This document shows positions 1-10,209 of a stretch of 11,908 nt of DNA, piece by piece. Source of the stretch: an uncultured archaeon (GTDB taxonomy: Archaea; Asgardarchaeota; Lokiarchaeia; Sigyniarchaeales; SOKP01). The notes beneath the pieces were generated by a model, which was given only the letters and a program-made list of their open reading frames with translations, had not been told where the DNA came from and did not search any database. The stretch is taken from contig CAZBPC010000097.1 in the NCBI GenBank assembly GCA_964493715.1, positions 1-11,908 of the forward strand, written 5' to 3'. Made by a program: the position numbers and the translations under genes. Numbering within the stretch: position 1 is the stretch's first letter; every line of letters starts with the position of its first letter.

Positions 1-1260
1 TATCTTCACCATTTAGGTATAAAGTCAACTCGGTATCTATTTGTACTATCTGAATCGCAAGTGTGATCGATTGAGGCTCATATTCCCCTTTTCTAGCATA
101 TATCGTTAAGAAATTAATACCAAAACTTAAATCAGTTGTGTTCAAGACCGTAGTATAATTACTATAGCTCTCTCCAAGAACTTCTGACACACCAGAACCG
201 TTCACGTCCACGGTTGCCCCACTTATAAACAGCGTTGAAATTGAATCTTTATAGGAAACGGTAAGATTAATCAATTGATTGGTATAGGTTGTTATTGCAG
301 GATTAGCCGTATAATCTATTCCATCTAAGTAGATTTTATATTCTGTGTTCCTTTCAAAAACATCTATAGTAAGAAGTACAATTGTAGAGGTATAATTTAC
401 CTTTTCAGCTATTATGTTAACAAATGATGTCCCAACTCCTAAATCCATTGAATTTAAGGTAAAGTTATAATATGTAGGATTTTCCTCGAAAATCTCTTCA
501 ATTTCAGTACCCTTTTTTAGGGTAACAATGGCTCCATTAATAACGCTTCCTGAAGATTCAAGATCGTTAAATGTAACCTCAAAGTTTAACAACTCTCCAG
601 ATTTTACATTATAAGATTTGTTAGCTGTGCAATCTATGTTATTGATCAAAATTCTCTCAATATAAGTTTCTCTTGGAACTATTCCAATGGATATTATCAT
701 TGTCTGCTCCTCACAACCAATTTTATTGAATGTAATTTTGAGATTATATTCCTTATTTATCTGATAAAGCGAACTATTAAATGTGATATTATACAATCCA
801 TTACCTGACATTGAAGCTTTCTCTCCGTTCCATTCAATTGCGAGATCTGCATTCTCAATACCAATTCCATTTGACTTATAGGTGTAATTAAGATGGATCG
901 TGAAATTATTATTCCAAGGAACCTGAATATTTGGATATTCTTCTGCTGTAAGAATGGTGTACTTAATGACATCAATCGTAATATCTACGACTTTATTAAG
1001 ATAAAATGAATGATTGGCATAAATTGTTACAGTATTATTTCCAGGATTGGCTTTACTAGCATTAAATTCGTACAAGTAAAAACCTGGACTTATTCTATCT
1101 AATGTTTCGATTGTCCCTGTAAAATTTGTATATACTGTTGCATAATCTATTGCTGAATTATCTATTAAATCGTTAAATGAGACTTTGATATTAACGATTC
1201 TATCTTCAGCTACATTGTCGATGAAAAAGATACCTTGATCAGGATATAGCAAAGAATCGT
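1..1260 (-). repeat. About four degenerate ~95-107 aa protein-level repeats (Ig-like) plus the start of a fifth
   Basis: Recurring motifs: NIKVSFNDLIDNSAIDYATV / TIHLNYTYKSNGIGIENADL / NFEVTFNDLESSGSVINGAIV / NLTVSYKDSISTLFISGATV; and YNFTLNSMDLGVGTSFVNIIAEKVNY vs YTTVLNTTDLSFGINFLTIYARKGEY; INNIDCTAN vs LDGIDYTAN vs LNGED. Confidence 0.75.
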
Positions 1261-3145
1261 GGATGACAGTGAATTTTTTATAAATAATCCCTGTTTCATT
1301 TAAACCAAAAGATGAATAAGAATTATTCCACCTAATAATTGCCTCATACTCTCCTGCTATATAATTTGGGCCATTATTAGGTATTCTGATAGGATCAAAA
1401 TATACCATACCTAAACTATCGACAGATTTAAATTGCTTTTGTATTGACCAAATTGTACCATTTGGAAACCTAATTTGAAGTTGAGCTTGCGTTTGCTGGA
1501 TGTACCCTAAAACCAATTGAGAATTATTGATCTTTCCAGTAACATTAATGTACTCTCCACTTAAGAACTCATTATTTATCTCCCAATTGTTTGTAGCATT
1601 ATTATATATATCCATCTCTTCACAGTAATTCGGAGATTCCGCTGTTAGCTTCCAAAATCCATTTGTATTGCTTGTGATAGAACTTACTGGAACATTTACA
1701 ATTTTTTTATTTCCATACTCTGTGATCGAAGCTTGAGAAAGCGAATCAGGGTTTAGTGAGAAGTATAATCCTGTTAAATTATAATCTAAAGGATAATCAA
1801 CGATCATATTTGTTTCTTCATATCCTGCTGGAATCTCCATATGTGCATATGTAGTCCAATTTGTATTACTCTTATTAGATGCAATAAATGAGGAACCTTG
1901 GTATTCCAAACTTGAATCAGCAGTATAATATGTTTCTGGAGTAGATTTTGTAGTATATAGATTTAAATTAGTAGTAAGCTCAACCTTATAACTTATCCAA
2001 TTTCCATCATCTTGGTAAGTGAAAGACCAATCTGAATTACTACTAAAATTAGCAATCACTGATGATTGAAGGCTTCCATTCCAATTACCAATAACACCCA
2101 AATTGCCTTCACCATAATTACCATTATCATTCACATTTTCACCATTTAATTTCAATTCTAATTGGATTGGTTTTGCTTTAGATTTTACTATTAATGAAAC
2201 ATTATCAAAAAGGACAGAATAGGAAGATGCATAACCAGAAGCGGTGCCACTAACTCTCTTAAACTCTAGAGTAACATTCAGATTTTTAATTCCTTCAGGG
2301 AATATTTGTTCGTCATTACCATCTAAGTAAATAGGATATGGATTATACCATTGACCATTTGGATTGCCAGATGCATCTATCATAGATTGAAGACCGTTAC
2401 CCCAAACAATTTTACCATTTACTAAAATTTGTAACACCATATGATTATTGAATTCATCACCATCTTTAGGAAAAACTGCAAAAGATAACCAAGCTTCCTC
2501 TACATTTCCTCTATCTAGCTGAAAGTTCGTTTCCCACCAACATTTATCCCCAACATCATAACGACCACTATTCGCATTAATCAACAATTCCAAACTACTT
2601 TCATAATCAGATACAGAAGTAGAACCATCATAATAATTTCCACTCATAGAATTAGTATATCCTTGAACATCTCCAGTTTTAAATGTCCAACCATCAATAT
2701 AATTACTATCATTAGATCCTGAAGGAGAACCACCAAAATTTCCTGCATTAAATGTTCCATTAATCCAATTCCGGGTATCGTATAAATTTGTTATTGTAGA
2801 ATTTAATTGATAACCATCCCATCCATATAAATCTACTTGCGCGTGAGTATCATCATACGAATTGTTATTGAAACTAACATCTAAATTAGACTTTGTTTGG
2901 TTAGCATAGTGAGTTACATTCCAAGGAACACCAATACCAGTGAATGTATTATCAGAAACTAAATCTTGAGTTTTTAAAATGTCATTCTGAAAGTCCTCAT
3001 TTTTATCGTATTTTTGATTTCCATACTCTAAATTAGCAGCTATATCGGGATTTTTTAAAGAAGTCATTAAAATTAAGTAAATTAAAACGCTCGATAAAAC
3101 TAAGATTCGTCTTCGTTTAATTCTATTTAGATTATTAAATTTCAT
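1..3145 (-). CDS. Large secreted/cell-surface glycoprotein with tandem Ig-like beta-sandwich repeats (partial, >1048 aa, 3' end outside window)
   Basis: Manual translation from ATG at 3145 (MKFNNLNRIKRRRILVLSSVLIYLILMTSLKNPD...) has no in-frame stop down to position 1. Basic n-region plus hydrophobic h-region indicates a signal peptide/anchor. Rich in N/S/T/Y/W/G with more than 20 N-X-S/T sequons (NVT, NQT, NST, NGT, NFT, NYT, NIT, NLT...). About 100-aa beta-rich repeats in the distal part. Missing from the ORF track because it has no stop in the window. Confidence 0.92.
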   Translation of the reverse strand, partial: MKFNNLNRIKRRRILVLSSVLIYLILMTSLKNPDIAANLEYGNQKYDKNEDFQNDILKTQDLVSDNTFTGIGVPWNVTHYANQTKSNLDVSFNNNSYDDTHAQVDLYGWDGYQLNSTITNLYDTRNWINGTFNAGNFGGSPSGSNDSNYIDGWTFKTGDVQGYTNSMSGNYYDGSTSVSDYESSLELLINANSGRYDVGDKCWWETNFQLDRGNVEEAWLSFAVFPKDGDEFNNHMVLQILVNGKIVWGNGLQSMIDASGNPNGQWYNPYPIYLDGNDEQIFPEGIKNLNVTLEFKRVSGTASGYASSYSVLFDNVSLIVKSKAKPIQLELKLNGENVNDNGNYGEGNLGVIGNWNGSLQSSVIANFSSNSDWSFTYQDDGNWISYKVELTTNLNLYTTKSTPETYYTADSSLEYQGSSFIASNKSNTNWTTYAHMEIPAGYEETNMIVDYPLDYNLTGLYFSLNPDSLSQASITEYGNKKIVNVPVSSITSNTNGFWKLTAESPNYCEEMDIYNNATNNWEINNEFLSGEYINVTGKINNSQLVLGYIQQTQAQLQIRFPNGTIWSIQKQFKSVDSLGMVYFDPIRIPNNGPNYIAGEYEAIIRWNNSYSSFGLNETGIIYKKFTVIHDSLLYPDQGIFFIDNVAEDRIVNIKVSFNDLIDNSAIDYATVYTNFTGTIETLDRISPGFYLYEFNASKANPGNNTVTIYANHSFYLNKVVDITIDVIKYTILTAEEYPNIQVPWNNNFTIHLNYTYKSNGIGIENADLAIEWNGEKASMSGNGLYNITFNSSLYQINKEYNLKITFNKIGCEEQTMIISIGIVPRETYIERILINNIDCTANKSYNVKSGELLNFEVTFNDLESSGSVINGAIVTLKKGTEIEEIFEENPTYYNFTLNSMDLGVGTSFVNIIAEKVNYTSTIVLLTIDVFERNTEYKIYLDGIDYTANPAITTYTNQLINLTVSYKDSISTLFISGATVDVNGSGVSEVLGESYSNYTTVLNTTDLSFGINFLTIYARKGEYEPQSITLAIQIVQIDTELTLYLNGED

Positions 3146-3355: not shown

Positions 3356-4609
3356 ATGATTGAAGCAATTTTAACGTTTGAATTTGTATTAATTCAGAAA
3401 CCGACTGGAGAAGTGAAACCTGATTTTAAACCAATCATATTTTCTTTTGAGAATAAGGAGTTCACGAACGCAAACCTTTCTGAATTGATTTCGACAAGTG
3501 ACTTATTTTCGATTTTATATCATCACACTACTAGCATGCGTGAAATAGCAGGTGGTTTTAGCAATTTTTACGAGGGAAGATTAAAAGAGACATTTTATCA
3601 AATAAGCTCCTATTTCATTCAGGCTGACAGTGGTACGCAATTTCTGACTATATTAGTTTTTACTTTAGATGAGGATCTTGGGATCTATGAAGATATAATT
3701 AAAAGTTTAGCAAGAAAAATGGATTATTTATTCGAAACTTTTGAAACGGCTAAAAAAACAAATCAAATTTCTATAATCAGCAAAATTCATGAGAATATTG
3801 AGAATGAATTAAAATATGCAACATTTCAAATCAAGCGTTTAACTAGCCTTGATAAAATACAAAAATCTGCATTGATTTTTAATAGTTATGAACGTTTAGA
3901 AATTTTAAAAACACTACGAGAATCTCCTAAATCAAAAAAAGAAGTTAGAGAAATTCTTGAAAGAGTTAAAGAAAATCCTAATTTAGATATATTACTTGAA
4001 CCTTTTCTCGAATTAAACCTTATTCGCCGCGATTGGATTAAAGGAAAAAGAGACAAACGAACTGGATTGATTCAAGATCAAGGTGAATATTTGTTTTTAA
4101 CTAAAGATATTGAGTTAATTAGGGTACCCAACTATGAATTGCTAAATCACTTAAAAGAATCTAAACACGAACTATATTCGAAGTATGAAGCTAAAGTAGT
4201 AGATTTCTTCTCGGAATACGACCCAAAAACACAAACTGTTGAACAGAAAAAGAAAATTTCATCCATCTTGCTTAACCCAGACATATATGATCTCTTTGCG
4301 ATGTTGCGAAATAAATATTATCCAAAAGATAAAATCCCTAACATATTTTCAGAATTCGCTGATCTTGAATTATTATTGGATGAACTGATCCAACTTCAGA
4401 TCATTATCGAAATTAAAGATCAAAAGGAAAGACCGTGGTTATTATTGTTAACTGATATACAACCGATGATCTTTTTCCCAGAATATATGTTGAATAACGT
4501 AAAGGATGCATATCACAACGAAGACGCCAAGAAGAAAATTCCTTTTGAAGTAGCTAAGAAGGCTTTAGATCTATTAGAAGTTGCCTATCCTGAAAAAATT
4601 GAATTCTAA
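3356..4609 (+). CDS. Hypothetical protein, 417 aa: putative N-terminal longin/uDENN-like domain plus two tandem winged-helix repeats
   Basis: aa 1-130 pattern beta-beta-alpha-beta-beta-beta-alpha (YQISSYF..FLTILVF..DEDLGIYEDIIKSLA). aa ~166-290 and ~296-412 align: ERLEILKTLRE..K..NLDILLEPFLELNLI..EYLFLTKDI..P vs DIYDLFAMLRN..K..DLELLLDELIQLQII..WLLLLTDI..P. ORF is solid; fold calls are inference. Confidence 0.65.
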   Translation: MIEAILTFEFVLIQKPTGEVKPDFKPIIFSFENKEFTNANLSELISTSDLFSILYHHTTSMREIAGGFSNFYEGRLKETFYQISSYFIQADSGTQFLTILVFTLDEDLGIYEDIIKSLARKMDYLFETFETAKKTNQISIISKIHENIENELKYATFQIKRLTSLDKIQKSALIFNSYERLEILKTLRESPKSKKEVREILERVKENPNLDILLEPFLELNLIRRDWIKGKRDKRTGLIQDQGEYLFLTKDIELIRVPNYELLNHLKESKHELYSKYEAKVVDFFSEYDPKTQTVEQKKKISSILLNPDIYDLFAMLRNKYYPKDKIPNIFSEFADLELLLDELIQLQIIIEIKDQKERPWLLLLTDIQPMIFFPEYMLNNVKDAYHNEDAKKKIPFEVAKKALDLLEVAYPEKIEF

Positions 4610-4637: not shown

Positions 4638-6275
4638 TCAATAGTTAAATCCTAGATTTTTAATCGTATTTAATGTTACTGATAATTGTTCATATACATC
4701 AATTACATTATCCTCCTTAATTCTGAAGAATAATAACGATACCAATCTATTTTCTGCTTCTTCTTCTAAATTAAAGTTTTCGATTAATTCAGACCAATTT
4801 TCATCACTAGAAACTCTAATTCCGACAGAAATTACTTTATTTTTCTTTAAATCTTGTATTATGTTTGATATAATTTCAATCCAAGCGGAATCAATGCTGT
4901 TTTTATCCCTTGCATCAAATAAGCATAAGACTCCATCAGAATCGGTTGTTTTATAAGAATCATAAATATAACTCTTTAAAATCAGCCCATTATCAAATTC
5001 AAAACGCTTTTCCTTTTTCTTATCTTTTATATTAATGGGTGTCCCCATTTTATCTATTTTAGTTAAAATCTGCAGTGTGGGATTCCACAACTCATTTTGG
5101 CTTAAAAAGGTTAATGTTAATTCCTTGTTCGTCTCAAGGATCGAGTTAATCTCATCTAAAATTTTTCCCTTCAATATTGACTCCTCCTTTTCTTCACAAC
5201 TTAGAATGAAATGATAGGAAATTAAATTGAACGCATCTTGAATTCGATTACCATTTTTAGCACTCGTTTCGATATATGAAATTTTGGTTTTAGATCCATT
5301 TTCAATTGATGAAAGATCAGAATAATCTGACATTGTCGTGCTTTCTGACATTCCGGTTAATTTTGAAAGGTCGCTGGCAAGTTGAACGCCTTCTTCGTGA
5401 CTAATGACTCTCTGTTCTGTAAGATCTGTTTTGTTTCCGATAATTATAATTGGTAAATCCTTGTATTCGAGGAATTCTTTCAGTTCATTATGCCAATAAG
5501 TAACATTTTTAAAAGTTTCCCTATTAGTTAAATCGAAGACGATAAAGGCAGCTTGGGCTCCACCATAATAAGTTTTCCTGTATCTCTTGAAGTATTTTTG
5601 AGCACCGATATCCCATAACATTATATTGATTTTATTTCCAAAAGCATCAAATTCATGCGAGAGAATATTTAAACCTATGGTGGCTCGATATTTATCTACA
5701 AAATTCCCTTCCACGAATCTTCTGATGATTGAAGTCTTCCCAACTTCATGATCTCCAATCACAATGAATTTAAAACGATAAATTCCTCCTTGTTCGATCT
5801 TGGATTGGTAAAGTTGGTTCTTAATTCTCCCCATATCACTACAAACTTCCCCTCCGAACTTAAAATCAGGAATAGAAATCTGAATTAATCCTGTTTCAGA
5901 AGCATCAAGAATTTGAGCTGTTTTTTCAGCAAGAAAATAGGCATAAGGCGCGATGCTATCTATAGAACCCATGCTTTGTATTACCAAACTTAATGTCGTC
6001 TCTTCATTTATCAACACAAAAAGCAAACGATGTTCTTCTGTATCGATACTGGCTGTTCCAAATTGTTTGAATGAAAATTCTTCTCTTACTCTTTCAATTA
6101 AGGGGTTTATAACCGCAGTTAGAAAAGAGACAATTTCGAGGTCAATATTCATTCTTTTTTCACCCGCTATCACGAAACCATCCACATCTGATATAATTAT
6201 TGCTTCGACATCCGTGTTTTGATTCAGAAAATTATTAAATACGCTTTCAAACAATTGCTTTTTGATCATTGACAC
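4638..6275 (-). CDS. Roadblock/LC7 domain + Rab-like small GTPase + degenerate second G-like domain, 545 aa
   Basis: aa 1-125 roadblock/MglB signature (VEAIIISDVDGFVIA...). aa ~166-357: G1 GDHEVGKT, G2 ATIG, G3 WDIGAQ, YYGGAQAAFIVFDLT, G4 GNKTD, G5 ETSAK. No C-terminal Cys prenylation motif. Start is GTG 6275 or ATG 6269, with SD-like GGCGTGA upstream. Confidence 0.92.
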   Translation of the reverse strand: MSMIKKQLFESVFNNFLNQNTDVEAIIISDVDGFVIAGEKRMNIDLEIVSFLTAVINPLIERVREEFSFKQFGTASIDTEEHRLLFVLINEETTLSLVIQSMGSIDSIAPYAYFLAEKTAQILDASETGLIQISIPDFKFGGEVCSDMGRIKNQLYQSKIEQGGIYRFKFIVIGDHEVGKTSIIRRFVEGNFVDKYRATIGLNILSHEFDAFGNKINIMLWDIGAQKYFKRYRKTYYGGAQAAFIVFDLTNRETFKNVTYWHNELKEFLEYKDLPIIIIGNKTDLTEQRVISHEEGVQLASDLSKLTGMSESTTMSDYSDLSSIENGSKTKISYIETSAKNGNRIQDAFNLISYHFILSCEEKEESILKGKILDEINSILETNKELTLTFLSQNELWNPTLQILTKIDKMGTPINIKDKKKEKRFEFDNGLILKSYIYDSYKTTDSDGVLCLFDARDKNSIDSAWIEIISNIIQDLKKNKVISVGIRVSSDENWSELIENFNLEEEAENRLVSLLFFRIKEDNVIDVYEQLSVTLNTIKNLGFNY

Positions 6276-6513: not shown

Positions 6514-8709
6514 ATGGCTTTTATATTCCAAGGAAAATCAGAGAAAGAAGTTATAATTAAATGCAAGTTATGTTTCTCCGATGTAAAATTTGTCATTTCA
6601 TTAGCTGAATATCAAAATGCAACACAGTTTCCGCTAGTAAAAGAGTCAATCCATGGAACTCCTCCTCATAAGTTAATAATATCCTTAGATAAAAACTTGG
6701 AACTTAAAGAATTTAATATTGAAGATATCATCGACAAGGATGTTTCTTATTCAAAGGAATTAACTTTTCAAGTTTTAAGTGATATACAGCTAAATGAAGA
6801 GGAGATTGAACTATACTTCTTGACAACTGGTCGAGATGCTGTTTCTTTAGGGGAAATATCCATCCTTATCAACAAGGATAGTGATGAAAGCAAGAGGATC
6901 GCTGACAAATTCGTTGAAAAAGGATTATACAAGGAAATTGTTGGAGCCACTCCCCATTATGCCCCCTTACCACCATATGCAGCATTAATTAAACAATTAT
7001 CAAATTTTGATGAATACATCAAAGATATTAAGGAACAAGCTCCAGCTCAGTTAAATGAATCTTTTTCACAACTAGAAGCAAAGAGTAAAGGTATCAATGA
7101 ACTAAATGAGTACACAGAGTTTATTAGAAAATTGAAGGATAGAATTGAAAGTCAAATGGAGATTCAGAAAGTTGAAGTTGATAAAGCAATTAAAGTTATC
7201 GGGGAAATAAAAAACATTAATAACGTAATTTCTAACCTTGAAAATGATACAAAGGTAATTATAGAAGAGCAAATCAAAGATATCGAAGAACAATTTGAAG
7301 AAATGAAGAACTTAATTAGTAACAATCTACAAGAACTCCACTTAGGAGTCATCAGTAAGACTGTTAATCAGATAATTGATAATGTATTAAATGCGCGAAT
7401 GCAAATAATAGTAGATGGATTTAATACTAAACTTATCTCAAAAATTAGGAATATCATGAAAGACATCTCTGAAAATATTAATGCAATTACCGACTCCTCG
7501 TTGAAAACAGGAGAGACTTTAGAAGAAACTTTTTCAAACGTTACTGAATTGTTCACCAAAAATGTTACATATGCTGAGGAAAAGGTAAAAGGTATTTCAG
7601 ATCAAATCTTGGGTTCTTTTGAAGATTTGAAAAATACTTTTACTACTCGGGTCGTAAACACGCTAAGTGAAGAATTATTAAAGATTCTTAATCGATTAGA
7701 AATAAGCCAAATAACTACTAAAGAATTTTGGGAACAAGCAAAAAAGAAGAGCGTGATGTCCATGAGAGATATCTGGTTTATTCGATCTGTTGAAGGGGCA
7801 AGAGCTCACATCAATGAAGAAATATCTAAAACAAAGATGAGATTATTAATCGTAGCACCAAATATTACTGAAATTAATACATCACTCCTCCAATCACTCC
7901 CAAAACACGTCAATATCCGAATTGCTACATATATCAATCCGGATATCCCTGAACACAATGACGTGCTCCAAAATTTAGAAGGAATGCAAAACGTCTCCTA
8001 TAGAAATCGCGAACAACAAGATTTATGGGGGATTAATAGGGACTATGAAGAAGTTATTCTATGCATATTATCTAAAATAGATATAGGAAAAGAAGAAGGA
8101 ATAGAAATAGGGGGGATCGGCAGTATAGTCCAACAACACATTAAAATATTCGTACCAGTTCTTGAGGAGGCGTGGATAGGATCCCAAAAGACAGTAATGC
8201 CTGCAATGAGAACATCTTTTACGCAGAAATCAGTTCAACCTTCAGGTAGCTCAATTATTGGTGAATTGGATAGAAGTAAGGTGTTTACTGAGAATATTCA
8301 TAGCCATTCCTTGCCAAGTTCACCTTCAATCCCGAGTAAAAATTTACAAGCTGAAGTAAATATTCCAAGTATCGATAAGGTTCGGTTAACACCTATAAAT
8401 TTAGATCGAAGTTCAAGCACGCAAGCTAAATCAACTCAAACAGAAACTATTGACGCAGGAGGTTTATCAATCGGAGAACAATTAGATTTTTTGATAGCAA
8501 GCCTTCAAAAAAAAACGGGTCCTCAATTAGCTGAGATTTTAGAAAACATAAAAAATAAGATTGAATCAGAATTTGGATACGTTAGCATCTTAAGTCCTAT
8601 AGTAAATACGATTGCTGATCTGAATCAAATTCCGGGGTTAATCTCCTTAGCAGATGAGCAAGGTTTTGCAAATAGAATAAAATTCTGGAAGAAAAAACTT
8701 AATCTATAA
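6514..8709 (+). CDS. Multidomain TrmB-like protein, 731 aa: CxxC..H..H Zn-binding module, wHTH, long coiled coil, PLD-fold effector-type domain, S/P-rich linker, C-terminal helical bundle
   Basis: C17-K-L-C20, H47, H52. aa ~85-155 LSDIQLNEEEIELY..GEIS..KFVEKGLY..PHYAPLPP matches the TrmB N-terminal HTH pattern. aa ~155-415 is heptad-rich in E/K/I/N. aa ~418-556 IWFIRS..HINEEISKTKMRLLIVAP..VNIRI..RDYEEVIL..EEAW resembles the TrmB C-terminal/PLD-like fold, with no HxKxxxxD. Confidence 0.75.
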   Translation: MAFIFQGKSEKEVIIKCKLCFSDVKFVISLAEYQNATQFPLVKESIHGTPPHKLIISLDKNLELKEFNIEDIIDKDVSYSKELTFQVLSDIQLNEEEIELYFLTTGRDAVSLGEISILINKDSDESKRIADKFVEKGLYKEIVGATPHYAPLPPYAALIKQLSNFDEYIKDIKEQAPAQLNESFSQLEAKSKGINELNEYTEFIRKLKDRIESQMEIQKVEVDKAIKVIGEIKNINNVISNLENDTKVIIEEQIKDIEEQFEEMKNLISNNLQELHLGVISKTVNQIIDNVLNARMQIIVDGFNTKLISKIRNIMKDISENINAITDSSLKTGETLEETFSNVTELFTKNVTYAEEKVKGISDQILGSFEDLKNTFTTRVVNTLSEELLKILNRLEISQITTKEFWEQAKKKSVMSMRDIWFIRSVEGARAHINEEISKTKMRLLIVAPNITEINTSLLQSLPKHVNIRIATYINPDIPEHNDVLQNLEGMQNVSYRNREQQDLWGINRDYEEVILCILSKIDIGKEEGIEIGGIGSIVQQHIKIFVPVLEEAWIGSQKTVMPAMRTSFTQKSVQPSGSSIIGELDRSKVFTENIHSHSLPSSPSIPSKNLQAEVNIPSIDKVRLTPINLDRSSSTQAKSTQTETIDAGGLSIGEQLDFLIASLQKKTGPQLAEILENIKNKIESEFGYVSILSPIVNTIADLNQIPGLISLADEQGFANRIKFWKKKLNL

Positions 8710-8870: not shown

Positions 8871-9425
8871 ATGGCTATTAGTTTTCATTTTCGGGTTCCA
8901 GGCATTTCTGAGATCCTTACCTTAATATCTTTCATCAGCTTGTTAATTGGGAGTTTACTATTAAAAAAGGAAAACAAGCATAAAGCAACGTATTTATTCC
9001 TTATGGGAAGTTCATTCGAAGTGTTATGGCAAGTTATTAACTTTTTTATTCCCGGAATAATCCTACCAATGATACCAAGTCCTGAAGATATAGAATTTGT
9101 AGGAACTTATGCCTTGATCTTCACGGGAATAATTCCAGGAACCGTGTTAATTTTAAGCGTTGGAATTCTACCGTTACTGTTTGCCCTGAAAAATAAAAAA
9201 TCAGATTACATTCACTCTTTAGAAATTGGGGCAATAATTCTAATAATTTCTGTTTTAATTGGAATGATTCTAGGTAATTCATTGTTAAACATAATTTCAA
9301 TGATACTATTGGCAATTTCGATGTTTTATTTTTCTCTGTATGGGTATTATCTAAAGAATTGGGCATTAATTATATTTAGTGTCTTATTCTTCATATCCAG
9401 GGGTCTTTATCTATTAAATTTTTAG
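8871..9425 (+). CDS. Hypothetical integral membrane protein, 184 aa, about 6 TM helices
   Basis: Alternating ~20-aa hydrophobic stretches and short Lys-rich loops (KKENKHK, KNKKSD, LKN); no family motif recognised. Confidence 0.8.
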   Translation: MAISFHFRVPGISEILTLISFISLLIGSLLLKKENKHKATYLFLMGSSFEVLWQVINFFIPGIILPMIPSPEDIEFVGTYALIFTGIIPGTVLILSVGILPLLFALKNKKSDYIHSLEIGAIILIISVLIGMILGNSLLNIISMILLAISMFYFSLYGYYLKNWALIIFSVLFFISRGLYLLNF

Positions 9426-9563
9426 GTCTTTTGTAATAAAAAGTAAATAAAAAATAATTTACTAATATATCCCAAATTCCCAATTAATTATGTATAAAGG
9501 TTACAACTATGTTCTAAAGAGGTATAATAAAGAGCAACTCATTAAGGATGTGTAAAAATTTCT

Positions 9564-9570
9564 AAAAAAA
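9564..9570 (-). terminator. U7 tract ending the peroxiredoxin-like transcript
   Basis: A7 on + (T7 on -) immediately after the 3' UTR hairpin. Confidence 0.5.
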
Positions 9571-9571
9571 G

Positions 9572-9655
9572 TATGAATTTTGATTCGGATAAGTGTGGCT
9601 AACTTTTTAGAATAAAATTCGACCATTTCTTATATTTTATTCCTTCCAAATCATA
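9572..9655 (-). promoter_or_regulatory. 3' UTR stem-loop, candidate SECIS element
   Basis: On the mRNA strand: UGAUUUGGA (9653-9645) pairs with UCCGAAUCA (9589-9581); inner AUAAG/CUUAU, UGGU/GCCA and AAUUUU/AAAGUU. Three G-U pairs work only on this strand. It begins just after the stop codon. A canonical AUGA/GA kink-turn could not be assigned. Confidence 0.45.
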
Positions 9656-9656
9656 A

Positions 9657-10130
9657 TTATTTGTTTAGATTTTTAAGTACATCAAATATTTCTTCAATTT
9701 TGGGAATATCATCCATTGAATCGCTATAATGTGCATATCTTATTATTGATTGCTTATCTATTATTAGAAGTGCTGGCATTCTACCAAATTTTAAAGGTTT
9801 TATTTCTTGGTTTAACATTTTATTGACTTTCTTTTTATCATCATAATATACAGGGTAATCTTTTGCATATTCGGATTCAAATTTTTTTGCATTTTCAAGG
9901 TTATCGGGTAAGATTGCATATAATTCTGTATCTAATTCTTTAAATTTTGTTAAGTTATTTCGCAAGCTTTTTGAATGTGCCTTGGCATAAGGTCAACTTT
10001 TGCTTCTAAATAACACTATCACTACGTTTTTTTTCCCTTTAAATTGAAGTATATTTGTTGTTTCATTTCTAGAATTTGGTAGACTAAACTCGCTGATTTC
10101 AGTACCAACTAGATTAAATTTATCTTTCAA
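9657..10130 (-). CDS. Peroxiredoxin-like (AhpC/TSA, thioredoxin fold) probable selenoprotein, 157 aa, Sec46
   Basis: From TTG 10130 (AAGTGA SD-like upstream): MKDKFNLVGTEISEFSLPNSRNETTNILQFKGKKNVVIVLFRSKS-TGA-PYAKAHSKSLRNNL...ELYAILPD...GRMPALLIIDKQSIIRYAH. TGA at 9995-9993 is in frame with the track ORF 9657..9965 and sits at the CPxC first-Cys position. Both halves match the AhpC/TSA pattern. Confidence 0.88.
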
Positions 10131-10209
10131 TTTTATTTCACTTATTTTTAATGATTTATGAGGATATCTTGTGAAAAGCTTAAAAAATTAATTCTTCTAA
10201 TTTAAAAAT

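Follow-up and report, generated by a model that had tools for sequence, protein, structure and literature searches.

Peroxiredoxin-like (PrxL) selenoproteins were described in Lokiarchaeota by Mariotti et al. (2016), with a redox box that lies over the T/SxxC motif of peroxiredoxins (Prx) (PMC4989117). Selenocysteine (Sec, U) takes the first position of this box in PrxL.2 and both positions in PrxL.1, and the proteins contain no other Cys (PMC4989117). The element reported downstream of these genes is the lokiSECIS, a Sec insertion sequence (SECIS) made of AUGA, 9 base pairs (bp), a loop of 11 nucleotides (nt) and GA (PMC4989117). The main text of a later survey gives Prx-like selenoproteins for 43.2% of Sec-using Asgard genomes and structures like the eukaryotic SECIS (eSECIS) for 85.1% of all Asgard selenoprotein genes (Huang et al., 2024; PMC11227280). 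Table 1 of a 2026 review contains a Prx-like family with UxxC and UxxU boxes and, as a separate entry, a bacterial AhpC/TSA-like selenoprotein with UxxS (PMC13188914). The subject here is a PrxL-type gene with one in-frame TGA on contig CAZBPC010000097.1 (assembly GCA_964493715.1), together with the conserved RNA junction that follows its stop codon. The whole contig of 11,908 nt, referred to as the window, belongs to a genome of 3.68 Mb in 160 contigs from an uncultured archaeon (Asgardarchaeota; Lokiarchaeia; Sigyniarchaeales; SOKP01).

Comparison with related genomes suggests that this is an intact PrxL gene of an expressed type, that its UGA46 encodes Sec, that the junction is the most likely insertion signal and that the product contains a single Sec; the probability of this joint reading is put at roughly 85%. 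As PrxL selenoproteins were published in 2016 and 2024, the gene is a member of a published family and not a new kind. The preliminary description of this DNA had called it a hidden selenoprotein, which is correct for its annotation and goes too far for its kind.

The window protein resembles PrxL.1 and PrxL.2 in its AhpC/TSA-type fold, in Sec at the first box position and in the lack of Cys outside the box; the Asgard host and a structured RNA right past the stop codon are also shared. In contrast to the published UxxC and UxxU boxes, however, it has UxxA and falls in a clade with Ala, Ser or Thr at the second position, and its RNA element conserves a UAGCCA hairpin instead of the AUGA/GA core. 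Neither the Cys-free UxxA clade nor the core-less UAGCCA junction was found described in the main texts searched.

The in-frame TGA and the Sec machinery

The reading frame opens with TTG at 10130-10128, where orthologs have ATG, and closes with TAA at 9659-9657. It contains a single TGA, in the context VVIVLFRSKS-U-PYAKAH, and is free of frameshifts and additional stops. The preliminary description had taken an open reading frame (ORF) of 102 residues for the C-terminal part of a gene extending 55 codons further upstream through the TGA, and had counted no Cys in the resulting 157 residues. Both the frame and the count of 0 Cys proved right. None of the six other large ORFs of the window contains an in-frame TGA, so this codon is not generally reassigned; TGA also ends the window gene at 4638..6275 (-).

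A six-frame search of 60 related genomes returned 34 matches at E <= 2e-33, of which 32 have exactly one TGA and two have none. Of 30 related loci that were fetched, 29 have the TGA aligned at this codon, and the remaining one (L038) has Asp there. When the best 80 of 126 relatives were taken from species-representative genomes, 78 of the 80 Asgard contigs had TGA at the site, while L129 has Asp and L100 was not parsed. The 80 contigs span metagenome-assembled genomes of Promethearchaeota/Promethearchaeia, Frey-, Jord-, Atabey-, Hermod-, Thor-, Borr- and Helarchaeota. The set of 60 genomes and the species-representative set overlap, and their TGA counts are not independent. An alternation of TGA with Cys, which the preliminary description had looked to as a check, appears in part: one homolog (P0047, 40% identity) carries Cys as CPYC in the box, whereas the other replacements are Asp.

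The Asp-type homologs (L038:885-1355; a second copy, L035:2143-2616; L129) read LLRGLMDLFCQ, keep the second Cys and lack the TGA. In one genome the Asp-type copy lies in tandem directly after a Sec copy. The tblastn match in L100 (601-1289) spans 689 nt against the usual ~470, as if this contig had an insertion or the gene were split; the junction element still follows it.

Matches to all components of an archaeal/eukaryotic-type Sec system, which the preliminary description had proposed to look for, were found in the genome. SelD is present as a tandem pair (C18:41768-44417), each copy with one in-frame TGA, with scores of 188 and 172 bits (cut-off 125); multiple selD genes are reported for Loki- and Thorarchaeia in the main text of the Asgard survey (PMC11227280). 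SepSecS (476 bits) exceeds its cut-off, as does a tRNA-Sec (59 bits) immediately upstream of it. With a PSTK-like and a SelB-like gene, whose scores are weighed below, the genome would hold, by sequence, tRNA-Sec, SepSecS, PSTK(-like), SelD and SelB/EFSec(-like) functions. Together with the comparative evidence, this machinery gives strong support to the Sec insertion that had been proposed, and UGA46 most likely encodes Sec. Translation would begin at the TTG (10130) and end at the UAA (9659-9657), with UGA46 decoded by tRNA-Sec, the PSTK-like protein, SepSecS, SelD and the SelB/EFSec-like factor and most likely marked by the junction RNA at 9655-9580.

Fold and redox box

The Pfam model AhpC-TSA (PF00578) matches residues 8-132 across the TGA (8.2e-21; 74.7 bits against a cut-off of 26), and the Redoxin model of Pfam also matches. 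An AF2 (AlphaFold2) model from a 29-sequence alignment has a mean predicted local distance difference test (pLDDT) score of 94.4. In this model Sec46 directly precedes helix 47-58, a position that the first redox-box residue usually takes. The best fold matches in the PDB are Bcp1, Bcp4, AhpE, 1-Cys Prx and ResA, with TM-scores of ~0.85. BCP/PrxQ and AhpE (3drn, 3hjp, 2cx3, 1xxu) share the overall fold at this level and reach sequence E-values down to 1.3e-7, but the PxxxT/SxxC motif with its peroxidatic Cys is absent from the window protein. When aligned by phmmer to the BCP/PrxQ structures 3drn and 2cx3, the window protein has Arg42 at the Pro of this motif, Sec46 at its Thr/Ser and Ala49 at its peroxidatic Cys. 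As U46 lies on the Thr/Ser of T/SxxC, Sec is the first residue of a thioredoxin-type redox box and not the equivalent of the Prx catalytic Cys. The placement of Sec at the catalytic Cys in the preliminary description is therefore withdrawn; Ala49 is the residue that aligns with the peroxidatic Cys. Arg117 is invariant across the 29 sequences, yet in the sequence alignment it is shifted relative to the catalytic Arg that peroxiredoxins conserve ahead of the last core strand.

Relatives outside the clade of the window protein carry UP[YFH]C and exactly one Cys, with the exception of L041, which has three. In 18 distinct clade members the second box residue is Ala, Ser or Thr, and the clade proteins all lack Cys. 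A quick maximum-likelihood tree of 89 distinct proteins, with L100 and L071 left out, places these 18 in one clade (SH-aLRT branch support 100; branch length 0.29) nested among UxxC sequences. The second Cys was accordingly lost in a single event, and the change has since been kept under purifying selection. The missing second redox residue pointed out in the preliminary description is thus real and extends over the whole clade. The term UxxA together with selenocysteine was not found in the literature searched. A paralog with 35% identity (L048; G056:C196:9167-9631, -) has two Sec in its box (U-G-V-U, within GVTUGVUKK).

With no Cys and Ala at the second position, the window protein is unable to form an internal selenenylsulfide. 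In glutathione peroxidase, 1-Cys peroxiredoxins and monothiol glutaredoxins, the oxidised form is resolved by an outside thiol. By analogy, an external reductant is a reasonable assumption for the window protein. Its Sec, at the N-terminus of helix 1 and in the first position of a UxxC-type box, would make it a single-selenol redox enzyme whose cycle would have to run via either a selenenic acid or a mixed Se-S bond to an external thiol. Glutathione peroxidase (UxxT), the cd02970 proteins (UxxS) and 1-Cys Prx likewise have a single Sec or Cys, a thioredoxin-type fold and no internal resolver three positions further on; they are, however, other families, and the likeness is one of functional analogy. 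Glutathione peroxidase and the bacterial AhpC/TSA-like UxxS protein (cd02970) are both entered in Table 1 of the 2026 review (PMC13188914). The window protein has no GSHPx or similar Pfam match at E <= 1. Its best NCBIfam match is to SelL-related redox proteins (NF040769), which likewise combine a Prx-like scaffold with a redox box, but at 45.5 bits against a cut-off of 120 it is not a member by the NCBI criterion. A Cys-free protein with a single Sec offers a natural experiment, in which a Prx-like scaffold is left with one redox atom.

The junction behind the stop codon and its alternatives

The 3' untranslated region (3'UTR) of the gene contains a three-way junction of helices P1, P2 and P3 (Table 1), the sole conserved structure between the stop codon and a run of seven T that is likely an archaeal transcription stop, judging from its sequence.

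Table 1. Features of the PrxL-type gene and its 3'UTR in the window
Feature	Position	Strand	Remarks
PrxL-type selenoprotein gene, 157 codons and TAA	9657..10130	-	frame, Pfam, ortholog alignment
In-frame TGA, codon 46, most likely read as Sec, directly before helix 47-58 of the predicted fold	9993..9995	-	
Codon 49, GCC (Ala), second redox-box position	9984..9986	-	Cys in relatives outside the clade; Sec in one paralog
Conserved three-way junction, candidate Sec insertion element, starting 2 nt after the stop codon	9580..9655	-	
P1 5' strand GAUUUGG, pairing with 9588-9582	9646..9652	-	
P2 hairpin, 9-bp stem GAAUAAAAU/AUUUUAUUC, 15-nt loop AUAAGAAAUGGUCGA	9610..9642	-	
P3 hairpin, stem AAGU/ACUU, loop UAGCCAC	9591..9605	-	
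P1 3' strand CCGAAUC	9582..9588	-	
Run of seven T	9564..9570	-	9 nt past the end of the element match, 11 nt past the P1 3' strand

The covariance model used here rests on 26 orthologous 3'UTRs and a three-helix structure specified by hand. Across 28 distinct sequences, 90.4% of cells are paired against 80.5% after shuffling, and 16 of 20 pairs show double changes; in a wider set of 78 distinct sequences the values are 96.3% against 89.3%, with double changes in 18 of 20 pairs. None of 500 shuffles reaches the observed pairing in either set, and sliding the partners by one column lowers pairing to ~60% in both alignments. The minimum free energy (MFE) fold of the window RNA is the same junction (-15.6 kcal/mol, z = -2.3), while a plain MFE fold of the 3'UTR with extra flank gives z = -0.73. 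RNAalifold on a MAFFT alignment, in which distant sequences are misaligned, recovers P1 only. The P3 loop is of the UAGCCA type in 76 of 85 distinct elements and fits U-N-[G/C]-C-C in 82 of them. A complement to this loop was not present in tRNA-Sec, and occurred in the mRNA of two of 30 genes, at differing places.

The junction follows the TGA-bearing genes closely. The window genome gives one significant match to the covariance model in its 3.68 Mb. In the 60 related genomes, all 28 matches stand immediately 3' of homologs with the TGA; two of the genes concerned were outside the training set, and one of the two is a UxxU paralog. The junction of this paralog (L048) scores 82.8 bits and is of the same kind, including a UAGCCAC loop; the P2 loop starts with GA and has AUGA directly before the 3' strand. 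Among the 80 wider contigs the junction lies right behind the gene in 77, the misses being L071, which is cut off, L086 and L129. No junction was found behind the three Asp-for-Sec homologs (L038, the second copy in L035, L129) or at the SelD loci.

A scan with the strict lokiSECIS pattern (AUGA, 9 bp, 11-nt A-rich loop, GA or AA) found five places in the genome (C4, C14, C39, C48, C77), all elsewhere than behind the window gene. Four of these canonical elements follow the gene for VhuD, two paralogous ORFs with adjacent TGA codons and a second AhpC/TSA gene (FFRGNWUSHC). The fifth lies 6 nt after a 67-codon ORF on C14 that has one in-frame TGA in the motif GGGUGC. The second AhpC/TSA selenoprotein gene (C77:10804-11331, -; L143:158-667) encodes a UxxC protein (WUSHC) with 23% identity to the window protein. 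The two proteins align U to U, and the C77 gene has its canonical lokiSECIS 11 nt after the stop codon, so that the two Prx-like genes of this genome rely on elements of different kinds.

The window element resembles the lokiSECIS in its position just past the stop codon, in a main stem of 9 bp and in the run of A within its loop. Its loop, however, has 15 nt with an AAA run and ends in GA, whereas that of the lokiSECIS has 11 nt, is A-rich and ends in G. A third helix with a near-invariant UAGCCA loop further sets the junction family apart. At the base of P2 the window has AAGG/CU, in ordinary pairs, where canonical elements have AUGA/GA, and the P2 flanks vary among orthologs. A kink-turn or k-junction at the P2 base was considered and rejected, as the junction sequences are not conserved.

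The canonical elements of this genome have more structure than the published pattern. In all five a second hairpin begins 1-4 bases after GA/AA, and four of them fold with it at three to four bases from the GA. Its stem co-varies between orthologs (L141-L145, L147-L151), as in UCUGGA/UCCAGA, AUUAGGA/UCCUAAU and AAGGA/UCCUU. In two of the five MFE folds a lower helix encloses both hairpins. With a second hairpin and an enclosing helix in canonical elements, a three-helix layout seems common to both kinds. The second hairpin is not mentioned in the main text of PMC4989117, nor is a three-way junction in the main texts of PMC4989117 and PMC11227280, on which their supplements may bear. A literature search combining SECIS with 'three-way junction' returned, by title, no paper on such an element.

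Several observations weigh against the joint reading of a Sec-encoding UGA46 and a signalling junction. The window element lacks the AUGA/GA core that defines both the lokiSECIS and the eukaryotic SECIS. In 43 of 68 distinct elements of the UxxC type the P2 loop ends in RUGA(N) beside the 3' strand and begins, beside the 5' strand, with (N)GA (31 elements) or (N)AA (12), but the (N)GA...RUGA(N) signature occurs in 0 of 17 distinct elements of the window clade, which retain the AAA run and a terminal (U)GA. The covariation counts come from model-fitted alignments of related sequences and are biased towards the structure. The PSTK-like gene scores 169 bits, under the cut-off of 290.5 (TIGR03574), and the SelB-like GTPase 231 bits, under that of 242 (TIGR00475, selB). 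The latter cut-off was passed in two of 14 control genomes and the former only in the Methanocaldococcus jannaschii control; the SelB-like gene lies ~3 kb from tRNA-Sec on the same contig. One comparison within the clade, with L018, gives a ratio of nonsynonymous to synonymous substitution rates (dN/dS) of 0.74 at low dS. Neither neighbour of the gene, a Pyr_redox_2/Fer4_20 oxidoreductase upstream and a 184-aa ORF downstream, was found within ~1.5 kb of 29 other loci, and the context therefore gives no hint of the reductant.

The missing core and the distance of only 9 nt to the run of T would fit a terminator-proximal structure, peculiar to this gene family, that acts in stability or regulation, with UGA decoded through a true signal elsewhere, such as in the coding region. 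An Rfam scan of the whole window at E <= 10, which gave no SECIS or other match in 9400-10200, agrees with this possibility. Still, it is unlikely. The junction is absent behind all three homologs without TGA and follows TGA-bearing genes in 77 of 80 and 28 of 28 cases, and its layout and 9-bp stem are common to the canonical lokiSECIS of the same genome. No other conserved 3'UTR structure lies ahead of the T run. A relaxed AUGA...AA fold, with one match in the window, lacks covariation support: 67.9% of its cells are paired against 67.6% after shuffling, a level reached by 212 of 500 shuffles.

Within the UxxA clade, UGA could instead be read as Cys or Trp by a near-cognate tRNA, or be decoded inefficiently, with the kink-turn-like signature eroding along with the partner Cys. 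The loss of RUGA throughout the clade and its coincidence with the loss of the second Cys are what such a reading would predict, and it is given a small chance, below that of a non-signal junction. P1, P2, P3 and the UAGCCA loop are still conserved in the clade, however, all 18 distinct members keep a TGA that is one step away from a sense codon, and the genome keeps a full Sec system and further selenoprotein genes.

Sec insertion directed by the junction remains the preferred reading, and leads to a comparison with the lokiSECIS as a class. Many UxxC relatives have the same motifs as the lokiSECIS, on the same strands relative to a 9-10-bp stem, but at the loop end, and their A-rich junction comes after the strand that AUGA precedes. 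In view of the properties of kink-turns and K-loops, the loop-end motifs may represent a circular permutation of the lokiSECIS, resembling a K-loop. A wider proposal, made tentatively and with the odds somewhat against it, is that Sec insertion in a widespread Asgard PrxL subfamily relies on an element of a second class, a three-way junction with its kink-turn core elsewhere than at the base of the 9-bp stem. Under this proposal most members would be permuted, K-loop-like lokiSECIS in which the A-rich junction replaces the apical loop, and the invariant UAGCCA hairpin would be a new recognition determinant. The window clade would insert Sec without a recognisable kink-turn, a change coinciding with that from UxxC to a single Sec.

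Asgard Sec systems are a reference point for the origin of the eukaryotic SECIS. If the junction directs Sec insertion without the AUGA/GA core, this core would not be strictly required in these archaea. The junction could then also explain part of the Asgard selenoprotein genes outside the 85.1% with an eSECIS-like structure in the main text of the survey (PMC11227280).

Selection on the frame bears on whether a full-length product is made at all. Standard gene calling with translation table 11 yields only the ORF at 9657..9965, which begins 55 codons downstream of the real start, and database entries of 102 aa from longer contigs, named 'peroxiredoxin' or 'peroxiredoxin Q/BCP', show the truncation that the preliminary description had predicted. 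Such entries are what a pseudogene or a truly truncated gene would produce, with termination at the TGA and at most the 102-aa ORF translated; this is highly improbable. A protein-guided codon alignment of 12 clade members, in which dS was usable for 19 of 66 pairs, gives a median dN/dS of 0.16 for the part ahead of the TGA and 0.13 for the part behind it, with a C-terminal range that extends to 0.89. Purifying selection on both sides of the TGA (~0.15) thus does not bear out the relaxed selection that would mark a pseudogene. The TGA is retained in 12 of 12 members though dS is often >1, and its position is conserved from genus to class and across Asgard lineages. The fold needs both halves, and the frame is uninterrupted. 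An error in sequencing or assembly, for TGT, TGC or TGG, has a negligible probability, given that contigs from all four other public runs span 9500-10200 and are identical at 9993-9995, the position singled out for checking in the preliminary description, and that dozens of genomes have orthologs with TGA at this codon. The nearby differences in those contigs, at 9981 and 10002, are both synonymous at third positions.

Among the database proteins P0002-P0036, full-length entries of 156-158 aa from contigs <2.3 kb have Trp at the Sec site in five of five fetched, presumably through gene calling with a TGA=Trp code. Public annotations thus cut the PrxL-type gene to 102 aa or place Trp at the Sec site.

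Further genes of the genome and the window

The two paralogous ORFs with adjacent TGA codons (C4:10816-11232, -; C48:21720-22196, +; L141, L142/L146) encode ~155 aa, with the pairs in HADUUADNF and DVGCUUEKV, and each has a canonical lokiSECIS 6-7 nt past its stop codon. Neither Pfam nor NCBIfam gives a match for them. Of the 60 related genomes, 41 contain homologs, and two TGA are present in nearly every match, down to 26% identity. An AF2 model has a pLDDT of 73.6, and its PDB matches are weak and beta-grasp-like, none at E <= 0.001. Among the seven families that the 2024 Asgard survey covers in its main text (PMC11227280), none seems to resemble these ORFs. They may represent an undescribed di-Sec family.

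Four further ORFs of the window have no Pfam match at E <= 0.001: 2-3145 (-; 1048 aa, open-ended), 3356-4609 (+; 417 aa), 6514-8709 (+; 731 aa) and 8871-9425 (+; 184 aa). Inside the first of these, the Na+ riboswitch aptamer RF03071 matches weakly at 2634-2692 (-), with 23.7 bits against a gathering threshold of 40.5 (E = 0.22), probably by chance. The TGA-terminated gene at 4638-6275 (-) encodes a 545-aa protein with a small GTPase domain of the Ras/Roc type and an N-terminal Roadblock/LC7 domain, which we take to be a typical 'eukaryotic signature' combination of Asgard archaea.

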